Shown piece by piece: positions 10,223-42,559 of a stretch of 64,000 nucleotides of DNA. The notes beneath the pieces were generated by a model. The model saw only the letters and a list, made by a program, of their open reading frames with translations, ran no database searches and had not been told where the DNA came from. How positions within the stretch are numbered: the stretch's first letter is position 1; each line of letters starts with the position of its first letter. This stretch comes from Candidatus Campbellbacteria bacterium GW2011_OD1_34_28. GTDB lineage: Bacteria; Patescibacteriota; Minisyncoccia; Phycocordibacterales; UBA12079. The stretch is taken from contig CP011215.1 in NCBI GenBank assembly GCA_001029775.1, forward strand, positions 357,722-421,721, written 5' to 3'. A program made the translations under genes and the position numbers.

Positions 10223-10344
10223 TTTGATATAACGAATCCGATCCACCCGTCTTTGCGAGCGACAGCGAACTTCGGATTTTTTAGGCAAAAAATTCGGAGC
10301 AATAAATCTAGATTTGTAATTTGTAACTTACAATATAAAATCAA

Positions 10345-10635
10345 ATGAGAGAAAAAACCGCCTATGTTTATATAATGGCAAGTAAGAAAAACGGAACATT
10401 GTATACGGGCGTAACATCTAATTTAGAAAAAAGAGTTTGGGAACACAAAAATAATATTGTAAAAAGTTTTACACAAAAATACAATGTTCACAATTTAGTT
10501 TATTTTGAATTCGGAGAAAATATTTTATCTGCGATAGAAAGAGAGAAACAAATTAAAAGTGGCTCTAGAAAAAAGAAAATAGAATTGATTGAAAAAGATA
10601 ATCCTGAATGGAATGATTTATCAAAAAACTTTTGA
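10345..10635 (+). CDS. GIY-YIG nuclease family protein (96 aa)
   Basis: YVYIMAS..GTLYTGVTSNLEKRVWEHK GIY...YIG motif. Confidence 0.8.
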   Translation: MREKTAYVYIMASKKNGTLYTGVTSNLEKRVWEHKNNIVKSFTQKYNVHNLVYFEFGENILSAIEREKQIKSGSRKKKIELIEKDNPEWNDLSKNF

Positions 10636-11165
10636 TGACGTGGATCGCGTCGGCTTCGCCTCGCGAAGACGATCCGCACGAACAACGTGGACCTGCCTCT
10701 TTTCTGAAAGAAAAGCAACGACACGGCGAGGCAGGTTGTTTCATTGCGTTCGCAATGACAAATTTCTAAAAGAAATTTGTCACCTTCGTCGTCATTGCGA
10801 GCGTAGCGAAGCAATCCATCATGAACTGTTTGTCCGAAATTAATGGACGTGGACCTGCCTGCCGGCGAGGCAGGTCGCTTCGGCTTCGCCTCGCGAAGAC
10901 GACCCGCACGAACAACGTGGACCTGCCTGCCGGCAGGCAGGTCGCTTCGTCGCTTCGTTGCACTCCGCTTCTCGCGAAGACGAAGCCACGTCGTCATTGC
11001 GAGCGTAGCGAAGCAATCCAGGACGACGAACAACTCAAAATAAACGACGTGGATTGCTTCACTTCGTTCGCAAAGACGGAATTTCTCAAAACGAAATTCC
11101 GTCACCTTCGTCGTCATTGCGAGCGTAGCGAAGCAATCCATAACAACTCGGTCTTGCAAAGAAAA
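10636..11165. repeat. Dense cluster of nested palindromic repeats (families A, B, C); non-coding
   Basis: Three forward copies of cgtcgtcattgcgagcgtagcgaagcaatcca (10788, 10990, 11110) plus an inverted copy at 11045. A 48-bp unit is duplicated (10650/10880). cctgcctgccggcaggcagg palindromes. Irregular spacing. Confidence 0.75.
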
Positions 11166-11347
11166 ATTACTTTTTTGTTGTTCTAATTTTCAAAAAATAA
11201 AAAGTTATCCACATTTAAAAATATACTATTTTTCGTAGTCTAAAAAACCTATATTTTAAGCCATCTCGTTTAGACGAGATAAATTAAAATAAGGGTTTTT
11301 TGACGGTGAATTTTTTCAAATAAAAAGTTATTATTATAGTAATAGAG

Positions 11348-14300
11348 ATGAGGGAAGAAATTATTTTAAATAGTAAAAAATTTCTCTCACTGAAAACTGC
11401 TGCGAGAGAAACAAACTATACCAATGACTACATTGGTCAGCTTTGTCGTTCAGGCAAAATCAATTCTCAAATGGTAGGAAAAATTCGTTTTGTGGAAGAA
11501 GATTCCTTGCTTGAATATGTTAAAAAAGCGAATGGTTTTGTAGATATAAAATATGCAGATATTGAAAATATTGCTATCAAAAATAACAAGGATCTCGGCG
11601 ATTTCTCGTCTGTACGAGATACTGATTTTGCTCATTTCCGTCAAGACAAAGCCAACAGTTTGTATGTAAACATTTTTGAAACAGTTTTCTCTAAAAAAGT
11701 AGTTCATGTCTATATCGCAATACTTGTTTTGTGTGGATTGTTTTTTGGTAGTACTTTGGACATACAAGGAGGTTTTGCAAAAATAAAAAATAAATCTGCC
11801 GAAGGATTGGCAAAAATTGTCATGGGAGCAAAAGTGGCGTCTGACAAAATTTCGGAAACGACATTAGCTGTTGCAAATGGCGAGATTGATTACGAAAAAG
11901 TTTATAAAAATTACTCAAATTTTTTAGGAGAGATGTCCGTTGATTTTGCCGAAGGTGAAGTAAAGTATTTCAAAAATGTTACTGGTGTAGGTAGCAAAGT
12001 AACCGAAGCAATTTTTAATCCAAGCGATACTTTTGTAACAGTTAAAACAGAGACAAAAAAAATTCAGGGAAGTGTAGAAGAAATAATTTTTGGTGGTGTG
12101 ATTTATTTTGAAAATCTTTCTACTAATTTAATTCGTGTAAATGAAAAAATTTCTCAAAATGGTTTTGCACAAGAAAAAAATTTGGCATTGTTGAGTCAAG
12201 ACAGTTTTGGATTTACAGAAAAATTTGCAATTACTTGGTATAGAACGATATCAGGTTTTTTTAGTTCCGCTGAAAAAATAGCCGACAGCACGGACGAAGC
12301 TGACAGCGGACAGCTAACAACCAACAGCACAGACGAAGACGACTCGTCCGTCTTTGCGAGCGATAGCGAAGTAATCCAGGAAGAAGACGAAGCCAACAGC
12401 CAACAGCCAACAGCTAACAGCACGAACCAAAACACAACCATCGTTACAAACCCAATCAGAGAAATCATAAAAGAAACCGTTGTAGAAAGAGTTATCCAAA
12501 CATCAGGCGTCACACTGGAAGATCTACAAAAACTAAACAACGAACTCCGAAGTGAAATCTACAAACTCTCATCAAATACAAATGCTCAAATCACCAACAC
12601 CTACCAAGTCATCTCTGCTACTAACAACATCGACAATCTGGGTAGTGTCACAATCACCGACTCAAACATCAGTTCCTCAAATGTCTCAGGAACAGAACTA
12701 AGCTTTACCAACGGAACAATTCAAAACCTAACTGTCACAGGCACAGCTACCTCTACATACGGTGGCCCTATTTCTGCAACCAGTGGAACATACTCTGGCA
12801 ATCTAACCGTAACAGGCAACACCACTCTAAACACTCTTACCGTATCAGGAGACACAATCTTTGACACAGACACTCTTTACATCGATTCAATCAACAACCG
12901 TGTAGGCATCGGATCAACAACACCCACAGATACTCTTTCAATAAACGGAGCAACATACCTTGCACCAATATCAGCTCCATCAATCACAACCGACAGACTT
13001 TACAACATCTCCAATGATTTATACTGGGGTGGTAATCTTTTATCAGGTTCTGCCGTTGGTAATTGGACATCCAACGGAACAGATGTTTGGAGAGCATCAG
13101 GAAATGTGGGTATCGGCACATCATCACCATCTTCAGATTACAGACTATCTGTTCAAGGTAACACTTACATCAAAGGTAATCTTAGGGTAAACGGAAATAC
13201 TACAATTTCAGATAGCGGAGAATTAACAGTCGGAGACAAAGTTATCTCAGAAGGAGAAATCGGAGTTGGAACATCTTCTCCCTATGCCAAACTATCTATC
13301 CAAGGAACAACTGTTTCCACAACCACTTTTGGTATCTATGGTTTTGCAAATCAAACACAGTCTCTCTTTGATGTATATGACAATCCTACGAATAATTTAA
13401 ATGTGTTTAGAATCACGAGTGATGGCAGCGTCGGTATCGCTACATCATCACCTTTTAGAAAGTTGAGTGTAGAAGGTAGTGCGTGGATTAGTGGAGACTT
13501 AACAGCCAACAGTTTCACTGCTACTTCTTCAATGAGCGCTCCTTACTTTACTGCAACAGACTCAAGTGCAACAAGTACTTTTGCAGGAGGCTTGGCTGTT
13601 GGAACAAACAAATTTGTTGTTGATTATTCTACGGGAAATGTGGGGGTGGGGACGGTGAGTCCGGATCAAAAATTGGATGTAAATGGCTGGGGTCGTTTTG
13701 AGGGGGCTGGGTCTACAAATCGTAGTGATTCTGGTGCAATAGAGTTTTATAACAATAATGCTTCATCTCTTAATGTGCAAGCTCAAATAAAGGGTCTACG
13801 AGGTATAGGTTCATATAATTCTGGTCAATTGGGATTTTTCACTAGACTAGCGGGTACACTTTATGAGCGAATGACACTAGATGAAAACGGCAACGTCGGC
13901 ATTGGGACGATGGTGCCGGGATATAAATTGGATATTGCTGGTTCTGTGGCAGCCCCGACGACTTTACTTGTCCAAGCAGGAGGCATAACTGAAAATACTG
14001 GGAATGCTTTTCGTGTTTATAGAAACAGAGCTTCCTCTTCTACAAACGCTCCGTTAGTAGATTTTATAAATGATGCAGCAACGGATGACCAGCCACTTTT
14101 TAGACTTCAACAAGATGCACCAGCTGATATTCTCCAAGTTTTTGATGGAGCAACTCAAGTGTTTACAATCCTAGACGGCGGCAACGTCGGGATCGGCACC
14201 ACTTCACCTCTCGCAAAACTATCTGTCAAAGGAGCAGGAACAACCACAGGCATAAACTTCCAAACAACCAATTCGGCTGACACTCCGTTGGTGACTGTTT

Positions 14301-35866: not shown

Positions 35867-36853
35867 TTGTACTTGATACTTACTACTTACTACTCTATAC
35901 TAATTCCTATGGATTTAAATAAATTTAAAGAAAATCAAAAGACAAGTTTTTTGGCGGGAGAATATGAAAGACTTGAAAGAGAAGAAAAAAACATCGATGA
36001 GATGCTTTCTTTGGATTTATCAATGAAAGATCTTGTTGAAGAAGAAAAAAATAATTTGAAAATTCAGAAAGACGCAATATTGAAACAGATGGAAGAGATT
36101 GTTTCTCAGGAAGAAAAAGAAGAAAAATTTCCCAACGAAATTATTATGGAAATTAGAGCAGGAGCAGGGGGGGACGAAGCCTCGTTGTTTGCTCAGAATT
36201 TGGCTGAAATGTATGAAAAATATGCAATAAAAAGAGGGTGGCAACTTAAGAAAACAGAGGAATCTTTGGGGACTATGGGCGGTTACAAAGAAGTTATTTT
36301 TGAGATCAAAGGATTGGATGTATACAAAGATTTGAGATTTGAAAATGGAGTTCACCGAGTACAGAGAATTCCTGTAACTGAAAAGCAGGGGAGAATTCAC
36401 ACCTCAACATCTTCAGTAATGATTCTTCCAATGAGAAAAAAAACCAAGTTTGTTATTGATCCATCTGATATAGAGATGGAACTTTCTCGTTCTGGTGGTG
36501 CTGGTGGTCAAAATGTTAACAAAGTTGAAACAGCTGTTCGTCTTATTCACAAACCAACAGGAATTGATGTTCGATGTACTTCGGAAAGGAGTCAGTTGAA
36601 AAACAGAGAAAAAGCAATGTCTATCTTGGTCGCAAAATTGGAACAAAAGAAAGACGAGGAAGATATGGCAAAAATTTTGGAAGAGAGAAGTCAACTGGTT
36701 GGTACGGGGGATCGATCTGAAAAAATTAGAACATACAATTATCCACAAGATCGAATTACAGATCATAGACTGAAAGAGTCTTGGTCAAATATAGAGAATA
36801 TATTGAATGGTGATTTACAGCCAATAATTGACGAATTTAAAGATTTAAAATAA
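35867..36853 (+). CDS. prfA: Peptide chain release factor 1
   Basis: PVT tripeptide ([14 protein letters not shown]), GGQ motif ([11 protein letters not shown]); true start may be MDLNKF at ~35909. Confidence 0.88.
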
Positions 36854-36865
36854 ATTTTTCTTTTG

Positions 36866-36894
36866 TTGCAAAATGACCCTTAATTTGGTAGTAT
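36866..36894 (+). promoter_or_regulatory. Sigma70-like promoter TTGCAA-17-TAGTAT upstream of rpsB-tsf, followed by GC-rich structured 5'UTR
   Basis: -35/-10 spacing 17; ~85-nt leader before rpsB. Confidence 0.45.
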
Positions 36895-36983
36895 CTTTGG
36901 GTATGCGGGTTCTGTCAAAGAAGTGCTTTGATGGGCGAGAGCCGTAAGAATCCAAATTTATTAAATAAGAAAGTAAGAAAATA

Positions 36984-37706
36984 ATGGAAAATATAATTGA
37001 TAAAATGTTTAAAGTGGGTGCCCACTTTGGGTATTCAAAGACAAAAAGACATCCTTCTGTAAAGAAGTTTATTTTTGGTGCAAAAAATAGAGTAGAAATT
37101 TTTGATTTGGAGAAGACGGTTAAATCTTTGGAAGATACAAAAATTTTTGTAAGAGATTTGGCTTCTTCAGGAAAACAAATTCTTTTTGTTTCAAGCAAAA
37201 GCGAAGCAAAAGAGGCTGTTGAAATAGGGGCTTCATCAATCGGTGCTCCTTTTGTTGCAGGAAGATGGATTGGAGGAACTTTGACCAATGCAACAGAAAT
37301 AAGAAAAAGAGTAAGTAAATATCAAAAATTATTGAATGACAAAGACAAAGGACTTTTGACAAAATATACCAAAAAAGAAAGATTGCTTATTGATAGAGAC
37401 ATAGAAAAATTGTCAAGAAAATTCTCAGGATTGACTAGCTTGGAAGGAATGCCCTCAGCTTTGTTTGTAGTTGACCCTAAAAAAGAAGAAATTGCTGTAA
37501 AAGAAGCTTTTGAAAAAAATATACCTGTAATTGCTCTTGCAAACTCAGATTGTAATATTAAAGGAATTAAATATCCTATCGCTGCAAATGACTCATCAAG
37601 ATCAAGTATTCAATTTTTTGTGGATGAAATAGTAGGTGCTTACAATGAAGGAAAGAAAAATGCTCCTAAGAAAGTTGTAGAAGACAAAAAAGAAATCAGA
37701 AAATAA
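36984..37706 (+). CDS. rpsB: 30S ribosomal protein S2
   Basis: FKVGAHFGYSKTKRHP... Confidence 0.95.
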   Translation: MENIIDKMFKVGAHFGYSKTKRHPSVKKFIFGAKNRVEIFDLEKTVKSLEDTKIFVRDLASSGKQILFVSSKSEAKEAVEIGASSIGAPFVAGRWIGGTLTNATEIRKRVSKYQKLLNDKDKGLLTKYTKKERLLIDRDIEKLSRKFSGLTSLEGMPSALFVVDPKKEEIAVKEAFEKNIPVIALANSDCNIKGIKYPIAANDSSRSSIQFFVDEIVGAYNEGKKNAPKKVVEDKKEIRK

Positions 37707-37804
37707 TTATTAACAAAGCCAATAGCCAATAGCTGGTAGCAAAAAAATTCCAAGGGAAATTTTTTGCCTTAAACTATAAGCTATAAGCTATAAGCTAAAA
37801 TATT

Positions 37805-38383
37805 ATGGTTACAATAGATCAAATTAAAGAATTAAGAGAAAAGACCGGAATCTCAATCGGTCAATGTAAAAAAGCCCTAGAAGAAGCAGGGGGTGATATA
37901 GAAAAAGCCGTAGTTATTCTAAGTAAAAAAGGAGGAGACTTTGCTGCAAAAAAATCAGACAGAATGTTAAAATCAGGAACTATTGCAACTTATGTTCACA
38001 GCAATGGAAAAGTTGGTTCTATGGTGGAGCTTTTGTGTGAAACAGATTTCGTTGCTAAGAACGAAGAATTCACTAAATTGGCTTATGATATTGCTATGCA
38101 AATAGCTGCAACAAATCCAACTTTTGTGAAAAAAGAAGAGATCACAGAAGATGACAGACAAAAAGCAATTGCAGTTTTTGAAGAAGAGGTAAAAGACAAG
38201 CCGACTGAAATGAGAGAAAAGATTTTGGAAGGGAAAATAAATTCATATTTCAAGGACAAGGTTTTGACAGAGCAAGACTTTATCAAAAATCCAGAAAGTA
38301 CAATCAGTAAACTTATTGAAGGGGCTGTTCATAAATTTGGTGAAAGAATGGAAATAGGCAAGTTTGTTAGATTTCAACTCTAA
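37805..38383 (+). CDS. tsf: Elongation factor Ts (short form)
   Basis: IKELREKTGISIGQCKKALEEAGGDIEKA UBA-like N-terminus. Confidence 0.92.
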   Translation: MVTIDQIKELREKTGISIGQCKKALEEAGGDIEKAVVILSKKGGDFAAKKSDRMLKSGTIATYVHSNGKVGSMVELLCETDFVAKNEEFTKLAYDIAMQIAATNPTFVKKEEITEDDRQKAIAVFEEEVKDKPTEMREKILEGKINSYFKDKVLTEQDFIKNPESTISKLIEGAVHKFGERMEIGKFVRFQL

Positions 38384-38399
38384 GCTATAATTATAGATT

Positions 38400-38780
38400 A
38401 TGATAACTACGTCATTTATAATTTCCTTGAGTTTGTTAGCTTTGTTGTTTGGTCTAAAAATTTTTGAAACCAAAACAAACAAAGTAATCATTTCCAAGGA
38501 AATTTTAGATAAGAGTGATGATAAATTGAAGCAATTCTTTATTTATATTTTTCGTCATTATAAAAAATTCTTGTTTGAAGTTTATAAATTACCTAAATTT
38601 TTTGAAGAAATAAAAAAAGATTTGAAGAAATTTTTTGCAACAAAAAGAGACAGAATCGCGACAAAAGTAATCAGAGCTTTGAATATTCACAACATCAAAG
38701 ACATTGATAGAAATAGAGGATCGGTGTCTCTTTTTTTAAGGACAATTTCCGAAGAAAAGGAGAGAAACAAAGGGTTGTAA
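38400..38780 (+). CDS. Hypothetical membrane protein
   Basis: N-terminal TM helix; Lys-rich; no family recognised. Confidence 0.4.
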   Translation: MITTSFIISLSLLALLFGLKIFETKTNKVIISKEILDKSDDKLKQFFIYIFRHYKKFLFEVYKLPKFFEEIKKDLKKFFATKRDRIATKVIRALNIHNIKDIDRNRGSVSLFLRTISEEKERNKGL

Positions 38781-38810
38781 TTTTTTCATAATAATATATA
38801 ATTTTTTATC

Positions 38811-38884
38811 AGTTGGTAGTTGGTAGTTGGTAGTTGGTAGTTGGTAGTTGGTAGTTGGTAGTTGGTAGTTGGTAGTTGGTAGTT
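38811..38884. repeat. Heptanucleotide microsatellite (GTTGGTA)x~10 abutting the tRNA 5' end
   Basis: Unit matches the tRNA D-loop sequence cagttggtag. Confidence 0.85.
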
Positions 38885-38957
38885 GCCATCTTAGCTCAGT
38901 TGGTAGAGCAACGGTTTTGTAAACCGTAGGTCCTCGGTTCGAATCCGAGAGATGGCT
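38885..38957 (+). tRNA. tRNA-Thr (anticodon UGU)
   Basis: Cloverleaf: acceptor gccatct/agatggc, D-arm gctc-agttggtag-agc, anticodon stem acggt/accgt with loop tttgtaa, T-arm ctcgg-ttcgaat-ccgag. Confidence 0.85.
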
Positions 38958-39147
38958 CAGAAAAAGTTTACAGTTAACAGTAAACAGTTTACAGTAACAA
39001 AAAAATCCCTGCGGGGATTTTTTGTTTGTTGCTCTAACGACTGAGCTAGCTCAGTAGGATAAAAAGCAAACTGCTTTGCTTTTTATCCGGTTTTTGCTTT
39101 AGCAAAAAATTTCCGTTATCGAGTGAAGCGAGATAGGAAATAGGTGG

Positions 39148-39181
39148 GAGAGCAACGGTTTTGTAAACCGTAGGTCCTCGG
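39148..39181 (+). other. Partial duplicate of tRNA-Thr (D-stem 3' strand through T-stem 5' strand)
   Basis: agagcaacggttttgtaaaccgtaggtcctcgg identical to the intact tRNA; remaining T-loop/acceptor piece at 39483-39498 beyond the GIY-YIG gene. Confidence 0.6.
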
Positions 39182-39224
39182 CCCGCCCAGCACTCAATTT
39201 TATTTTTTTTGATATAATTTTTGC

Positions 39225-39473
39225 ATGTACTATTTTTATGTTTTAAAAAATAATGAGAATGAATTATATTATGGTTCAACGAGTGATATCAAAAAAAGAA
39301 TTTTTGAACATAATAATAACCGCTCAATTTCTACTAAAGGAAAAACTTGGAAATTAATTTATTACGAAGCATATTTATTTGAAGATGATGCCCGTAATCG
39401 TGAGCATCAAATTAAGCATCACGGACAAGCAAAGAGGTGGTTGAAAGAGAGAATCAAAAATTCTTTGAAATAA
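39225..39473 (+). CDS. GIY-YIG nuclease family protein (82 aa) inserted in tRNA-Thr duplicate
   Basis: YYFYVLKN..ELYYGSTSDIKKRIFEHNN; flanked by inverted cccagcactcaatttt / aaattgagtgctggg. Confidence 0.8.
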   Translation: MYYFYVLKNNENELYYGSTSDIKKRIFEHNNNRSISTKGKTWKLIYYEAYLFEDDARNREHQIKHHGQAKRWLKERIKNSLK

Positions 39474-39575
39474 AATTGAGTGCTGGGTTAAAATCCGAGA
39501 GATGGCTCAGAAAAAGTTTACAGTTAACAGTAAACAGTTTACAGTAACAAAAAAATCCCTGCGGGGATTTTTTTG

Positions 39576-39790
39576 TTTTGAATGAGACGAAGTTTCGTCC
39601 GTCTTTGCGAGGTACGAAGCAATTCACGACGGACGTGGATCGCTTCACTATTGTTCGCGAAGACGGAATTTCGCAAAGCGAAATTCCGTTCGACCCGTCC
39701 GTCATTGCGAGCGGTAGCGAAGCAATCCACAAAAACTGTTTAGATTTTGTTTTTTTAGGGCTTAGTGATGTTTTCAACACATGAATCTTT
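39576..39790. repeat. Family-A repeat cluster (forward, inverted, forward copies plus the hairpin gacggaatttcgcaaagcgaaattccgt)
   Basis: Direct sequence match to the repeat consensus. Confidence 0.75.
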
Positions 39791-39887
39791 AAAGGACCGT
39801 TTTTTGTTGACATTTTTTCGCTCTTGGTTAAGAATGATGAGGAAACCGGCTTTGTTGACCAAAGCCATTGTACCTTAAAATCTTGCT

Positions 39888-41123
39888 TTGTTGATCAAAG
39901 TGAGAAAAATGGAGGATGCCATGACAAACATTGAATGTGAAGATCCAAAAGAAACAGAGAGAAGGGAAAAAGAAACGGGTTTATTATCTTTGATTAGTTC
40001 TTATGGCTGGATATTACATCACCCGATTTTACTTTCTGTGGTAGAGGACGCTCCATCCCCAAAGTCTGCCGATAATTACATTATGACGCAGTTTAGCGGA
40101 TGCAGTACGGGCAGAAACATATTGGCACAGGCGGTTAGAAATGCCGTAAGAATAAAAGAGAAGGTTGAAAAGGGTGTCTGGGCAGAATTGCTTAAAAAAG
40201 AAAAAAATGCTCGTCTGTCAGATTTGTTTTGTTTTGATCATGGGGAACCTGTCGATATAGAAATGGGTGGGCAACAGATTACTTTTTCTACGGACATAAA
40301 ATTTTCAGATAGAACAATAGCTTGTTCTCACTGGCCGTTGTTTCTAAGAGAGTTTTGTCGCGAAAGCGATGACTACAAAGAAACCAGTGTTGATTGCCCT
40401 GGTGATGATTTTGTTTTTGGAGATGTCGACGAACTGGGAGAATCTTTTTGGAATGATCGTTCATTTAAAAGGGAAGTATCATCCAAAAATTATAAGATTG
40501 AAACCTCTGCGGTGAGAAGAGAATTTCCTCTCCCAAAGTGTGCTTTCTATCAGATTTTTATCAAGGACAAATTTATTCTTAAAAGTCAGATCGTAAAAGT
40601 TAAACCAAAGAAAGGAGAAATTTATCATCGTTTCTATAAAATCGTTTCTATTTATAACAAGGATTGTTATGGAGGCTTATGCGAATCTATCGATATCTCT
40701 TATCCTATTGATTCATTCAACAATCGTAGAAGAGAAGGCCTTCTCACTTTTAGTAAAGAAGTAAGTCCAGTAGACGGCAGAAATAACGGCCAGCTCTATG
40801 TTTTGTTGAGATTGAATTTTTTATTCGGAAATGATTTTCTCCTTATACCTAAGGGAAATGGTACTGGTGGAGAAAACGATTTTTTGAATTACATCAGTGT
40901 CAGAAGCAAACTGTGCCAAGAGAATCTTTTGTTCCAACCGATGTCTCCGGCTCCGAGTTGTGAGGTTGTCGGGCGAGCTGTTTCCAGACTATACGAAGAC
41001 TTTCTTTGTGCATGGAATTTTTACACAAAAAACAAAATCAGTCTGTGTGGTATTTTAGATCAGGGGCTGCTTAAAAATCCTCCCGATAATTTGCTCGATT
41101 TTTTCACAGGGAAAAAAATGTAA
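39888..41123 (+). CDS. Hypothetical Cys-rich protein (411 aa), no recognised domain
   Basis: Long ORF with terminator hairpin ggggtcgc-ttcg-tgcgacccc at 41129-41149. Confidence 0.5.
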   Translation: MLIKVRKMEDAMTNIECEDPKETERREKETGLLSLISSYGWILHHPILLSVVEDAPSPKSADNYIMTQFSGCSTGRNILAQAVRNAVRIKEKVEKGVWAELLKKEKNARLSDLFCFDHGEPVDIEMGGQQITFSTDIKFSDRTIACSHWPLFLREFCRESDDYKETSVDCPGDDFVFGDVDELGESFWNDRSFKREVSSKNYKIETSAVRREFPLPKCAFYQIFIKDKFILKSQIVKVKPKKGEIYHRFYKIVSIYNKDCYGGLCESIDISYPIDSFNNRRREGLLTFSKEVSPVDGRNNGQLYVLLRLNFLFGNDFLLIPKGNGTGGENDFLNYISVRSKLCQENLLFQPMSPAPSCEVVGRAVSRLYEDFLCAWNFYTKNKISLCGILDQGLLKNPPDNLLDFFTGKKM

Positions 41124-41261
41124 TACAAGGGGTCGCTTCGTGCGACCCCTTTAAAATTGTTTATTTTCAACACTTGCTCGATTTTTAAAACCCTGTTATT
41201 ATTATTTATAGCAGTAATCTAGTCAATTACCTGCACGATTAGAAGTTTTATTGAAATAAAG

Positions 41262-41585
41262 ATGGAAAGAGATCAAGAATTTTTGGAGTTTGTAGTAAAG
41301 TCCCTAGTTGACGAACCTTCAACTGTTAAGGTTGAAAGAAAGGTTGATGAAATGGGAGTTTTGATGACTCTAGATGTAGCCCCTGGAGATATGGGCAAGA
41401 TTATTGGTAGAAGCGGTAATACTGCTAAAGCTATAAGAACATTGTTGAGAGTAGTTGGAATGAAAAACAATGCTCGTGTTAACTTAAAAATCAACGAACC
41501 AGAAGGTGGAATGAGATCTGCAAATATGGTTCAAGCTGCTGATAGCGCAAGCGTTGATGCAGCACTAGAAGATCTAAAGATGTAA
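41262..41585 (+). CDS. KH-domain RNA-binding protein (YlqC/UPF0109-like)
   Basis: GKIIGRSGNTAKAIRTL KH GxxG motif. Confidence 0.8.
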   Translation: MERDQEFLEFVVKSLVDEPSTVKVERKVDEMGVLMTLDVAPGDMGKIIGRSGNTAKAIRTLLRVVGMKNNARVNLKINEPEGGMRSANMVQAADSASVDAALEDLKM

Positions 41586-41736
41586 TAATTTAAATTGATT
41601 ATACAAGCAAAAAGTCGTATCATTTGAGTACGGCTTTTTGTTTGTATAATCAAAGCGTATAGCGTATAGGGTGTAGGGTAATAGAAAATTTTTTAAAAAT
41701 TTTACTAAACGCTACACCCTAACCCCTATAAAAGAA

Positions 41737-42387
41737 ATGATTTTTCACATAATAACATTATTTCCAAATTCTTTTGATTCGTATATAAACGAGTCTATTT
41801 TGGCACGCGCTATAAAAACAAAAAAAATAAAAATAAAATTTTATAATCCTAGAGATTTTGCCAATAATAAAAGACAAGTAGATGACAGGCCTTATGGTGG
41901 AGGTCCAGGAATGGTTATAAAGGCTGAACCCGTAATAAAAGCGGTTCTGAAAGCAATGGGGAAAAAAACTGGTGTGAAAATAATTTTCTTAAGTCCGTCA
42001 GGAAAGCAATTTGATAATTCTTATGCAAAAAAGATTTCCAAGACCCATAAAGAAATAATAATAATTGCAGGTCACTACGAAGGCATAGACGCTCGCGTGA
42101 AGAAAATATTTAAAACAGAAGATCTTACTATTGGGCCTTATGTCTTAACGGGGGGAGAATTGCCTGCAATGTTGATAGTGGATGTAATAACAAGACAAAT
42201 AGAAGGTGTTTTGGGGGATGCTCAGTCTCTCGAAGAAAACAGAAATGCATCACCAGAAGTTTACACCAGACCAGAGAGTTTCAAATATAAAAATAAAAAT
42301 TACAAAGTGCCAAAAGTTTTACTCTCAGGGAATCATAAGGAGATAGAGGAATGGCGACAAAATAAAAATTCCAAAATCGGCTCATAA
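41737..42387 (+). CDS. trmD: tRNA (guanine37-N1)-methyltransferase
   Basis: IITLFP..F; RQVDDRPYGGGPGMV. Confidence 0.93.
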   Translation: MIFHIITLFPNSFDSYINESILARAIKTKKIKIKFYNPRDFANNKRQVDDRPYGGGPGMVIKAEPVIKAVLKAMGKKTGVKIIFLSPSGKQFDNSYAKKISKTHKEIIIIAGHYEGIDARVKKIFKTEDLTIGPYVLTGGELPAMLIVDVITRQIEGVLGDAQSLEENRNASPEVYTRPESFKYKNKNYKVPKVLLSGNHKEIEEWRQNKNSKIGS

Positions 42388-42559
42388 CTTCGTCAGTTTC
42401 AGAAAAAATATTTTCACCGTATGTTCAATACGGCTCAAATATTTTTTCTTCGCTTCCTCGTTCTGCACTCGATTTATGAAATTTTTTAGAATTATTTAGT
42501 GTTTAGAATTTAGAGTTTGTAAATTATATCAGATTTTTTTTTAAAAAATCTGATATAAT

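Follow-up and report, generated by a model that had tools for sequence, protein, structure and literature searches.

A putatively mobile GIY-YIG inverted-repeat cassette in the T-loop of a decayed tRNA-Thr duplicate

Introduction

How does a gene for a small nuclease come to lie in the T-loop of a tRNA-like sequence? The question is raised by a tRNA-Thr locus in a 64,000-nucleotide stretch of DNA from Candidatus Campbellbacteria bacterium GW2011_OD1_34_28 (GenBank assembly GCA_001029775.1, contig CP011215.1, positions 357,722 to 421,721), the whole of which is referred to here as the window. At this locus an intact tRNA-Thr(UGU) gene is followed by a second copy, broken in its T-loop by about 300 bp that carry an open reading frame (ORF) for a protein of the GIY-YIG family. 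The explanation that we favour, with somewhat better than even confidence, is that a working tRNA-Thr(UGU) gene stands beside a dead duplicate which hosts an autonomous copy of a widespread family of GIY-YIG inverted-repeat cassettes, nuclease-driven insertion being the presumed route of entry.

The locus itself is ordinary, a pseudogene with debris of mobile DNA; it is the cassette family and the T-loop target that make the origin of the intervening sequences (IVSs) of ribosomal RNA (rRNA) testable. Such sequences have been known since about 1990, and to our knowledge neither their origin nor their movement between helices and between species has an explanation. The locus offers a tractable case, with a cassette in a gene for a structured RNA other than rRNA, an empty allele in one relative, a clean 4-nt target duplication in another and a promoter of the cassette's own.

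Results

The cassette and its host sequence

The cassette and its left junction are as follows, in coordinates of the window.

39186-39487, + strand: GIY-YIG cassette, 302 bp, bounded by a perfect 20-nt inverted repeat (Pfam PF01541)
39182-39185, + strand: left junction, CCCG, where the empty site has the T-loop bases TTCG (alignment with the empty site of locus L084 and the filled site of locus L087, described below)

The two arms, at 39186-39205 and 39468-39487, pair perfectly over 20 nt, and the right arm overlaps the stop codon of the ORF (39225-39473), which encodes an 82-amino-acid (82-aa) protein with a Pfam GIY-YIG domain (PF01541, E = 1.5e-12). An extended -10 box, TGATATAAT, at 39210-39218 ends 6 nt before the ATG (39225), implying a leaderless mRNA. 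The junctions read CTCGG-CCCG-cassette-TTAA-AAT-CCGAG, against CTCGG-TTCG-AAT-CCGAG in the empty site, and in the predicted RNA fold the long stem formed by the arms stacks on the T-stem (z = -6.1). A self-splicing intron was sought, and no Rfam intron family was found in the cassette at the gathering score or at E up to 1. A transposase was sought likewise: Pfam and NCBIfam searches of the locus gave GIY-YIG only, and no NCBIfam family passed its cut-off, grpIintron_endo scoring 17.8 bits against a cut-off of 56. A discrete mobile block encoding a GIY-YIG nuclease has in all likelihood been inserted into the T-loop of a sequence derived from a tRNA.

The host sequence can be divided as follows.

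38885-38958, + strand: intact tRNA-Thr(UGU) gene (ARAGORN; Rfam RF00005, 74.7 bits)
39028-39048, - strand: inverted D-arm fragment (inverted repeat, 21 nt, 90%)
39047-39058, + strand: 5′ half of the D-arm of the second copy, TAGCTCAGTAGG (direct repeat; alignments)
39059-39141, + strand: hairpin-rich D-loop insert ('INS') of the second copy, ~83 nt (inverted repeat; terminator scan)
39142-39181, + strand: second tRNA copy, from the 3′ part of the D-loop through the anticodon arm to the 5′ strand of the T-stem (direct repeat)
39488-39509, + strand: T-loop remnant TTAAAAT, T-stem 3′ strand CCGAG, acceptor 3′ strand AGATGGC and discriminator of the second copy (direct repeat)
39510-39573, + strand: second copy of the spacer and terminator, 100% identical to 38960-39023

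The body of the second copy is 95% identical to 38898-38937 of the intact gene, and 32 nt from GAGC to CTCGG are the same in both. It is interrupted after the 5′ strand of the T-stem by 39182-39487 (306 nt), and 39495-39573 then matches 38945-39023 over 79 nt at 100%, covering the 3′ strand of the T-stem, the acceptor, the spacer and the terminator. The first-pass annotation of this DNA had described a copy running from the D-stem to the 5′ T-stem, a 3′ remainder with terminator resuming after the insert, an inverted repeat around the ORF and a reverse-complemented D-arm fragment; all four are real, with small shifts of coordinates.

The inverted D-arm fragment stands where the 5′ acceptor strand of the second copy should be, and that strand is absent. 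Together with the forward D-arm half it forms a 16-nt palindrome, ACTGAGCTAGCTCAGT, at 39040-39055. The T-loop remnant reads TTAAAAT against TTCGAAT in the intact gene, and so has lost C56, a residue conserved across tRNAs. With the missing acceptor strand and this altered T-loop, removal of the intervening sequences does not restore a complete cloverleaf. The tRNA finders proposed earlier as a check divided accordingly: ARAGORN calls the intact gene, and neither ARAGORN nor Rfam calls a tRNA in the second copy, even at E up to 1. The D-loop insert, which matches no Rfam family and occurs once in the window, includes a terminator-like 14-bp hairpin (39057-39088) with a T-run after it. We conclude that the second tRNA-Thr copy is most probably a pseudogene, an old and dead tandem duplicate.

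The cassette protein

All the catalytic residues of GIY-YIG nucleases (Tyr, Tyr, Arg, His and Glu) are present in the 82-aa protein; the invariant positions are Y3, Y5, Y15, G17, R25, H29 and E60. The chain amounts to the catalytic domain only, and a separate domain for DNA binding or targeting is absent. By profile match its closest solved relatives are the UPF0213 proteins BH0048 and EF2693 (1zg2 and 1ywl; E = 3e-11 and 7e-8), the matches to SLX1 and I-TevI being marginal (E = 0.006 for I-TevI). The AlphaFold model has a mean predicted local distance difference test score (pLDDT) of 90.8, and its top Foldseek matches are 1zg2, 1ywl and SLX1. It superimposes on the nuclease domain of SLX1 with a template modelling (TM) score of 0.64-0.65 and a root-mean-square deviation of 2.6-2.8 Å. 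SLX1 itself acts on branched DNA as a structure-specific nuclease (PDB entry 6seh).

The locus in relatives

Relatives were sought with a lineage-specific gene of 126 aa that lies just upstream of the locus, and three were found; a metagenome scan with the same protein gave no match. In L084 (GCA_028689435.1), whose neighbour protein is 87% identical, the same promoter is followed by 5.4 copies of a heptamer repeat that also precedes the gene in the window, an intact tRNA-Thr(UGU), a spacer and terminator, the inverted D-arm fragment and the D-loop insert. Its second copy runs through a spacer and terminator of its own, with an intact T-loop, TTCGAAT, from which the cassette is absent; the comparison with relatives that had been suggested at first pass thus supplies the empty site. 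In L083 (neighbour 97% identical) two degenerate heptamer units are followed by a decayed copy and then by an intact tRNA-Thr. This decayed copy retains its 5′ acceptor strand and carries the same D-loop insert and an internal deletion. The contigs of L085 and L086 stop inside the heptamer array.

The closest cassette, P0002 (80% aa identity), occurs in L087 and L088, from two other samples, in a composite around tRNA-Thr(CGU) that again comprises the inverted D-arm fragment (shared, then, by the window, L084 and L087), the D-arm half, a homologous D-loop insert and a tRNA body. The L087 junctions, GTCGG-TTCA-cassette-TTCAAGT-CCGAC, place the insertion after T-loop position 57 and show a clean 4-nt duplication of TTCA. 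The same T-loop position is therefore filled in the window, L087 and L088 and empty in L084. The D-loop insert is found at the locus in L083 (3930-4020), L084 (4115-4225), L087 (745-860) and L088, and in the four lineages both hairpin stems are kept and the loops vary (CTGC, GCGG, GAAA); the insert may be under constraint, perhaps as a terminator.

Since the cassette is missing from L084, where the T-loop is intact but the locus is already duplicated and decayed, it in all probability arrived only after the duplication, the decay and the D-loop insertion. Within each genome the two tRNA copies share lineage-specific substitutions, in the anticodon, a compensatory T-stem pair and an acceptor base, and therefore appear to evolve in concert. 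Comparison of the ORF between the window and L087 gives a ratio of nonsynonymous to synonymous substitution (dN/dS) of 0.17 at a synonymous divergence (pS) of 0.48 and a dS of 0.76, which shows the gene to be under purifying selection.

A family of inverted-repeat cassettes

Homologues of the cassette protein form 114 clusters, and 554 loci were confirmed by tblastn in GTDB species genomes. The locus scan used a 16-sequence protein alignment, and 80 of the 554 loci were fetched. An inverted repeat of 13-31 nt is carried by 72 of these, nearly all with the terminal motif of the window copy. The geometry recurs throughout the family: the left arm lies 5-25 nt upstream of the ATG, the right arm overlaps the stop codon and the ORF, of 80-87 aa, encodes a stand-alone GIY-YIG domain. 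The conserved core of the repeat is CCCAGCACT(C)AACTTT / AAAGTT(G)AGTGCTGGG, in arms of ~20 bp.

Alignment of the ends from 51 distinct copies yields a stem of 21 bp in which Watson-Crick pairing reaches 94.9% and compensatory double changes affect 18 of the 21 pairs. The covariation score is 0.66, against 0.18 in shuffles, none of 500 of which reaches 0.66, and pairing falls to only 34-47% when the partners are moved by 1-3 columns. G-U pairs are nearly absent from the stem. This scarcity hints at a constraint at the level of DNA besides, or in place of, one at the level of RNA.

Ribosomal contexts were assigned by an Rfam run on 6 loci and by blastn of all 72 against rRNA from confirmed loci. 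Both flanks lie in rRNA for 34 of the 72 cassettes, at no fewer than five distinct helix tips of 23S and 16S rRNA, and in L051 (Methylotuvimicrobium sp. KM1), L054 (Lagierella massiliensis) and L058 (Paracoccus isoporae) the Rfam 23S model spans the ORF. The 23S sites we take to be helix 25 (the commonest), helix 45, a site near E. coli position ~1870 and the helix 98 region, and those in 16S rRNA presumably are helix 6 and helix 10; L020 holds one more 23S site. At many loci tRNA-Ile and tRNA-Ala genes lie a few hundred bases upstream on the same strand. The ORF is on the rRNA strand at 39 of the 40 loci with rRNA nearby, the exception being L004, outside the 16S gene. In most phyla, then, the cassette seems to act as a non-intron intervening sequence at rRNA hairpin tips, with its arms extending the host helix. 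Annotation pipelines normally suppress ORFs that overlap rRNA genes, and the family is therefore probably under-annotated.

In bacteria of the candidate phyla radiation (CPR) the cassette is also found between genes. The 38 copies outside rRNA (of 72) come mostly from CPR bacteria and Omnitrophota. Direct repeats of at least 4 nt, among them TTGA, TGTG, TTAT, CTTGC and TTTA, flank 14 of the 38, against 7.3% of mismatched left and right pairs. A -10-like hexamer is present in 17 of 36 such copies, and in most of the 17 its end lies exactly 6 nt before the ATG.

Some flanking sequences recur. Intergenic CPR cassettes are found at TGTG|GATAAC or TTAT|CCACA, resembling a DnaA box, and other intergenic cassettes follow TTGAC, with TATAAT-like hexamers 17 nt further on, resembling a promoter -35 box (L012, L026, L034 and L040; L009, L018 and L019 for the two groups together). 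These motifs could reflect a target preference or selection for expression.

A second tRNA insertion was looked for in several ways. Virtual excision of the cassette from the 72 loci, followed by ARAGORN, reconstituted no tRNA, and the sample held no other insertion into one; five further close cassettes (P0003, P0004, P0005, P0006 and P0015) all lie outside any tRNA context. In a metagenome scan with the right-junction pattern AGTGCNGGGTTCRANTCC, 0 of 120 among the matches listed had a GIY-YIG ORF upstream. These matches look like ordinary tRNA T-arm-like sequences, the pattern being too general. The phage and plasmid collections contained no homologue of the cassette.

Three variants of the arrangement may be recorded here. 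At 700-760 of L213 a full cassette is preceded, at a distance of 20 nt, by a solo hairpin without an ORF, in which the two cassette arms are joined by 6 nt (CCCGCACTAAATCAAT-attctc-ATTGATTTAGTGCGGG); this hairpin may represent an excision footprint or a derivative resembling a miniature inverted-repeat transposable element (MITE). In gammaproteobacterial 23S helix 25 (L051, L063, L076-L078 and L082) the cassette is nested in an outer repeat of opposite polarity, GAATTTAGGTGCTGGG ... CCCAGCACCTAAATTC, and each end forms a small hairpin of its own, as could result if the cassette had inserted into an arm hairpin already in place, or had recombined through a circle junction. Integration by way of a circle-junction hairpin, with which the nested hairpins of L063 and L051 are compatible, was considered and dropped; so was mimicry of a tRNA acceptor/T-arm minihelix by the repeat. 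In L004 (6-2250; Campbellbacteria AMX-MBFR-44) the adjoining 16S gene spans 2245 nt, against a model of ~1500 nt, and must therefore hold large insertions of its own.

Discussion

A possible mechanism

SLX1 cuts stem-loop DNA as well as branched DNA. A T-arm hairpin as target and an SLX1-like nuclease together suggest structure-directed cleavage of hairpin or cruciform DNA. We can thus sketch a route, nuclease-driven insertion at hairpin loops combined with selection of tolerated sites, which we regard as plausible while giving it a little less than even weight. The nuclease would recognise DNA able to form a hairpin or cruciform and would cut in the loop with a stagger of ~4 nt, here after T-loop position 57; repair would then install the cassette, by copying or by ligation. 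Selection would remove all insertions except those in dead genes or at hairpin tips that tolerate them. In rRNA the arms would serve as a processing stem, and the excised RNA may be the mRNA of the cassette.

A broader proposal, more tentative than this route and in our view doubtful at present, is that the family represents an unrecognised class of autonomous mobile element, in which a minimal SLX1-like nuclease inserts its own gene into hairpin loops. If it were true, such an element would be the long-sought agent that creates and spreads rRNA intervening sequences, acting here on a tRNA T-loop as well. The dead duplicate has served as a landing pad, trapping at least three different small mobile DNAs, and illustrates how minimal CPR genomes accommodate selfish elements.

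Several observations weigh against these proposals. The window copy lacks a clean target duplication, with CCCG on the left, TTAA on the right and degraded flanks, and a duplication accompanies only one of the 34 rRNA-embedded copies. Several of the duplications outside rRNA fall in recurring motifs (TTGAC, TGTGGATAA) and are therefore not all independent events. We know of no GIY-YIG protein that catalyses insertion, and the 82-aa protein would have to act with no separate DNA-binding domain. As the two tRNA copies evolve in concert, gene conversion from copy 1 could have removed a cassette from L084 and so created its empty site secondarily. Finally, the pS of 0.48 for the cassette is far above the divergence of the D-loop insert between the window and L087 (~14%, that is ~86% identity, counted on the alignment), a gap that points either to constraint on the insert or to independent arrival of the two cassettes.

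Alternative explanations

Of the other explanations, the one that survives best treats the cassette as a passive IVS. The repeat would be a processing stem for ribonuclease III (RNase III) that renders the insertion harmless in structured RNAs, the ORF a passenger or a gene with some cellular role, and spread a matter of homologous recombination and horizontal transfer of rRNA or tRNA gene segments, with no part for the nuclease. This view accounts for the rRNA-embedded copies, which are co-oriented with rRNA and so seldom duplicated at their target, for arms that covary like an RNA stem, and for the junctions of the window copy. We nevertheless consider it unlikely. The terminal motif stays the same across no fewer than five rRNA helices, numerous unrelated intergenic locations and a tRNA T-loop; 4-nt duplications are enriched at the non-rRNA sites and present at the L087 T-loop; the ORF is kept by purifying selection; near-zero G-U pairing would be unusual for a purely RNA-level constraint; and the intergenic copies have a -10 box of their own.

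The first-pass annotation had offered, as one of two readings, homing into a tRNA gene followed by duplication; the cassette would have entered a functional tRNA-Thr gene, and a later duplication would have restored an intact copy. The 79-nt and 32-nt identities between the copies could indeed look like the mark of a recent duplication, but concerted evolution, seen in L087 too, explains them better. Moreover, L084 has the duplication, the D-loop insert and the inverted fragment, yet an intact T-loop and no cassette, which reverses the proposed order, and the decayed copy of L083 also carries the D-loop insert. We therefore rate this sequence of events as very improbable.

Could the second copy instead be a functional tRNA gene with genuine intervening sequences in its D-loop and T-loop? 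The insert and the tRNA-derived parts are conserved across four lineages, those parts track the lineage-specific substitutions of the intact copy, compensatory T-stem change included, and the cassette arms would stack on the T-stem. The 5′ acceptor strand, however, has been replaced by the inverted D-arm fragment, the T-loop TTAAAAT lacks C56, ARAGORN and Rfam call nothing at E up to 1, and the L083 homologue bears a different lesion, its internal deletion. This possibility, which had been named at first pass as one that would overturn the reading of a disrupted locus, is in our judgement still more remote than homing followed by duplication. A separate point is that the composite of decayed tRNA copy and D-loop insert may be functional rather than a pseudogene, given its conservation in four lineages and a rate of evolution below that of synonymous sites nearby.

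Two suggestions are hardly credible. One, also made at first pass, is that of an integrative element (a genomic islet) which uses the tRNA 3′ end as attachment site, so that the duplicated 3′ part would represent attL and attR; a direct repeat of the tRNA 3′ end and downstream sequence does flank a 456-bp segment, but there is no integrase or recombinase, the 82-aa GIY-YIG frame being the only ORF, the repeat extends 65 nt past the tRNA, and L084 has the same repeat and terminator without the cassette. The other, mis-assembly of a collapsed or chimeric repeat, finds some encouragement in the trouble that the heptamer array causes in other assemblies, where L002 has an N gap and the contigs of L085 and L086 terminate, yet the layout is almost certainly genuine: the window and the L002 assembly are identical in layout outside the array, 23 contigs carry the ORF in the same context, and independent organisms share the architecture.

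Relation to known systems

The favoured reading, of a dead tRNA duplicate hosting an autonomous cassette, has a close parallel in the rRNA IVSs of Salmonella, Leptospira, Coxiella and Campylobacter (helices 25 and 45), which are excised by RNase III without religation. The cassette resembles them in being a non-intron insertion at the hairpin tip of a structured-RNA gene, with complementary arms that extend the helix, and in its patchy distribution; a small ORF is sometimes present in an IVS, and many cassettes lie exactly at helices 25 and 45. It differs in that the window copy lies outside rRNA, in the T-loop of a tRNA-derived pseudogene, that the core of its repeat is conserved across phyla, and that its intergenic copies have 4-nt duplications and a promoter of their own. 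The ORFs of classical Leptospira IVSs are of the same type as the S23p protein of Coxiella. That protein, encoded by the Coxiella IVS, is a four-helix protein (PMC4990558), unlike the GIY-YIG nuclease of the cassette.

Tsurumaki et al. (J Bacteriol 2024, PMC11270868) report that every GIY-YIG protein of CPR rRNA lies in an insertion unlike any group I or group II intron, and attribute the finding of GIY-YIG domains in such insertions to previous work (reference 2 there). The 2024 paper regards the insertions as sparse and 'outside the context of homing', and its text contains neither 'inverted repeat' nor 'tRNA'. Our cassettes agree with those insertions in phylum-level hosts, protein family and non-intron status. 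They go beyond them in the covarying repeat, the many non-CPR phyla, the five or more rRNA helices (at least five), the intergenic copies with target duplications, and the tRNA T-loop site with its empty allele. A literature search of incomplete coverage, and hence weak as evidence, found no account of a conserved repeat, target duplications, cross-phylum spread or a tRNA target. That rRNA insertions other than introns can contain GIY-YIG ORFs was already known; a tRNA T-loop as target, a conserved repeat and duplications of the target appear to be new.

With the GIY-YIG homing endonucleases (I-TevI, I-BmoI, phage Seg) the cassette shares the catalytic core and a presence/absence polymorphism at a defined site in an RNA gene. 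Unlike the I-TevI type its protein has no linker or DNA-binding domain, and unlike homing endonucleases generally it is associated with no self-splicing intron, is absent from the phage collection and occupies many unrelated targets. UPF0213/YhbQ and SLX1 are closer, with the best matches in sequence and fold over the whole domain; the cassette protein is a GIY-YIG protein of one domain only, and cleavage of branched or hairpin DNA by SLX1 fits the hairpin-loop target. UPF0213 genes, however, are ordinary chromosomal genes not known to be bracketed by inverted repeats, and SLX1 needs SLX4 and has a RING domain.

Small DNA transposons and MITEs offer a further comparison: with them the cassette family has in common terminal inverted repeats, what may be an ORF-less derivative (in L213) and a multicopy state in some genomes, and its 4-nt flanking repeats at many sites may be target duplications of the kind that they make. 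The cassette departs from them in having no DDE, serine, tyrosine or HUH transposase, in repeats that are perfect and covary, and in its preference for hairpin loops. Integrative elements that target tRNA genes likewise duplicate the 3′ part of the tRNA around the inserted DNA; here there is no integrase, and the duplication would be older than the cassette.

The tRNA-Thr gene, its leader and the surrounding sequence

The remaining features of the locus are those around the intact gene.

38775-38802, + strand: promoter-like site of the tRNA-Thr gene, TTGTAA-16-TATAAT (consensus scan, 10/12)
38811-38885, + strand: (AGTTGGT) microsatellite, 10.7 perfect copies (Tandem Repeats Finder score 150)
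38959-39023, + strand: spacer with 7-nt periodic repeats and an intrinsic terminator hairpin at 39000-39023 (Tandem Repeats Finder; terminator scan)

The promoter-like site is kept in L083, L084, L085 and L086. The array lies between it and the 5′ end of the tRNA, and is therefore predicted to be part of the transcribed 5′ leader; its last G is base 1 of the tRNA-Thr. The 14-mer of the array occurs 9 times against 0.00 expected (none in shuffles), and the first-pass description of an intact tRNA-Thr(UGU) after about ten heptamers agrees with the ARAGORN and Rfam gene and the 10.7 AGTTGGT copies. This copy number is the figure of one assembly: L002, a re-assembly of the same sample, disagrees inside the array, giving two blocks of 8.7 copies separated by 100 N. 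Across relatives there are 2 degenerate units, 5.4, 10.7 or at least 17 copies. The array is real and differs in size between lineages, and the variation in copy number that had been proposed as a check is seen between relatives and between assemblies alike. It also breaks short-read assemblies at the tRNA gene.

The array is probably a slippage-prone microsatellite in the 5′ leader of the tRNA, seeded by a D-arm fragment, since its left edge, TCAGTTGGTAG, equals tRNA-Thr positions 12-22, an 11-nt match to the D-loop. The earlier idea that slippage was seeded by the D-loop is plausible on the strength of this match and the variable copy number, but the further claim, that the heptamer is the D-loop sequence itself, fails in L084, where the D-loop reads AGTCGGTA and the repeat unit is still AGTTGGT.

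The spacer downstream of the tRNA is periodic at 7 nt, with ACAGTWA units at 38961-38999 and again at 39511-39549. In L084 (4025-4060) it is replaced by a different 7-nt periodic sequence of ATAGCTG units, a second heptamer tract at the locus. In L087 (1-640; JGI Ga0310046_1025412) and L088 the first tRNA copy is split in its D-loop by an element that ends in an ORF for an rve-type (DDE) transposase (Pfam rve, E = 1e-16). Across the relatives the D-loop of tRNA-Thr has thus been involved in four rearrangements: the insert, the inverted fragment, the insertion sequence (IS) element and the heptamer seed.

The genes around the locus are housekeeping genes (prfA, rpsB, a short tsf, a KH-domain gene and trmD). 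Locus L001 (LBQI01000003.1, GCA_000990765.1), reached through the GIY-YIG protein, is identical base for base to 36225-42473 of the window. A second, different GIY-YIG ORF in the window (10345-10635, 96 aa; phmmer E = 1.7e-8 against the cassette protein) is without an inverted repeat of the CCCAGCAC type.

Immediately downstream of the second terminator, 39578-39808 is a GC-rich block of ~230 nt, reaching 49% GC in a 35% GC genome. It contains two units of the form CGTCCGTC(T/A)TTGCGAG...CGAAGCAAT(T/C)CAC and internal palindromes, and is flanked by an 8-nt direct repeat, TTTTTGTT, at 39570-39577 and 39801-39808. The block is absent from the orthologous position in L084 and therefore has the look of a MITE-like element that was inserted separately. 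Further GC-rich repeats of this type (…CATTGCGAGCG.AGCGAAGCAATCC…) lie around the second GIY-YIG ORF, at 10225-11200 and 12354-12375.

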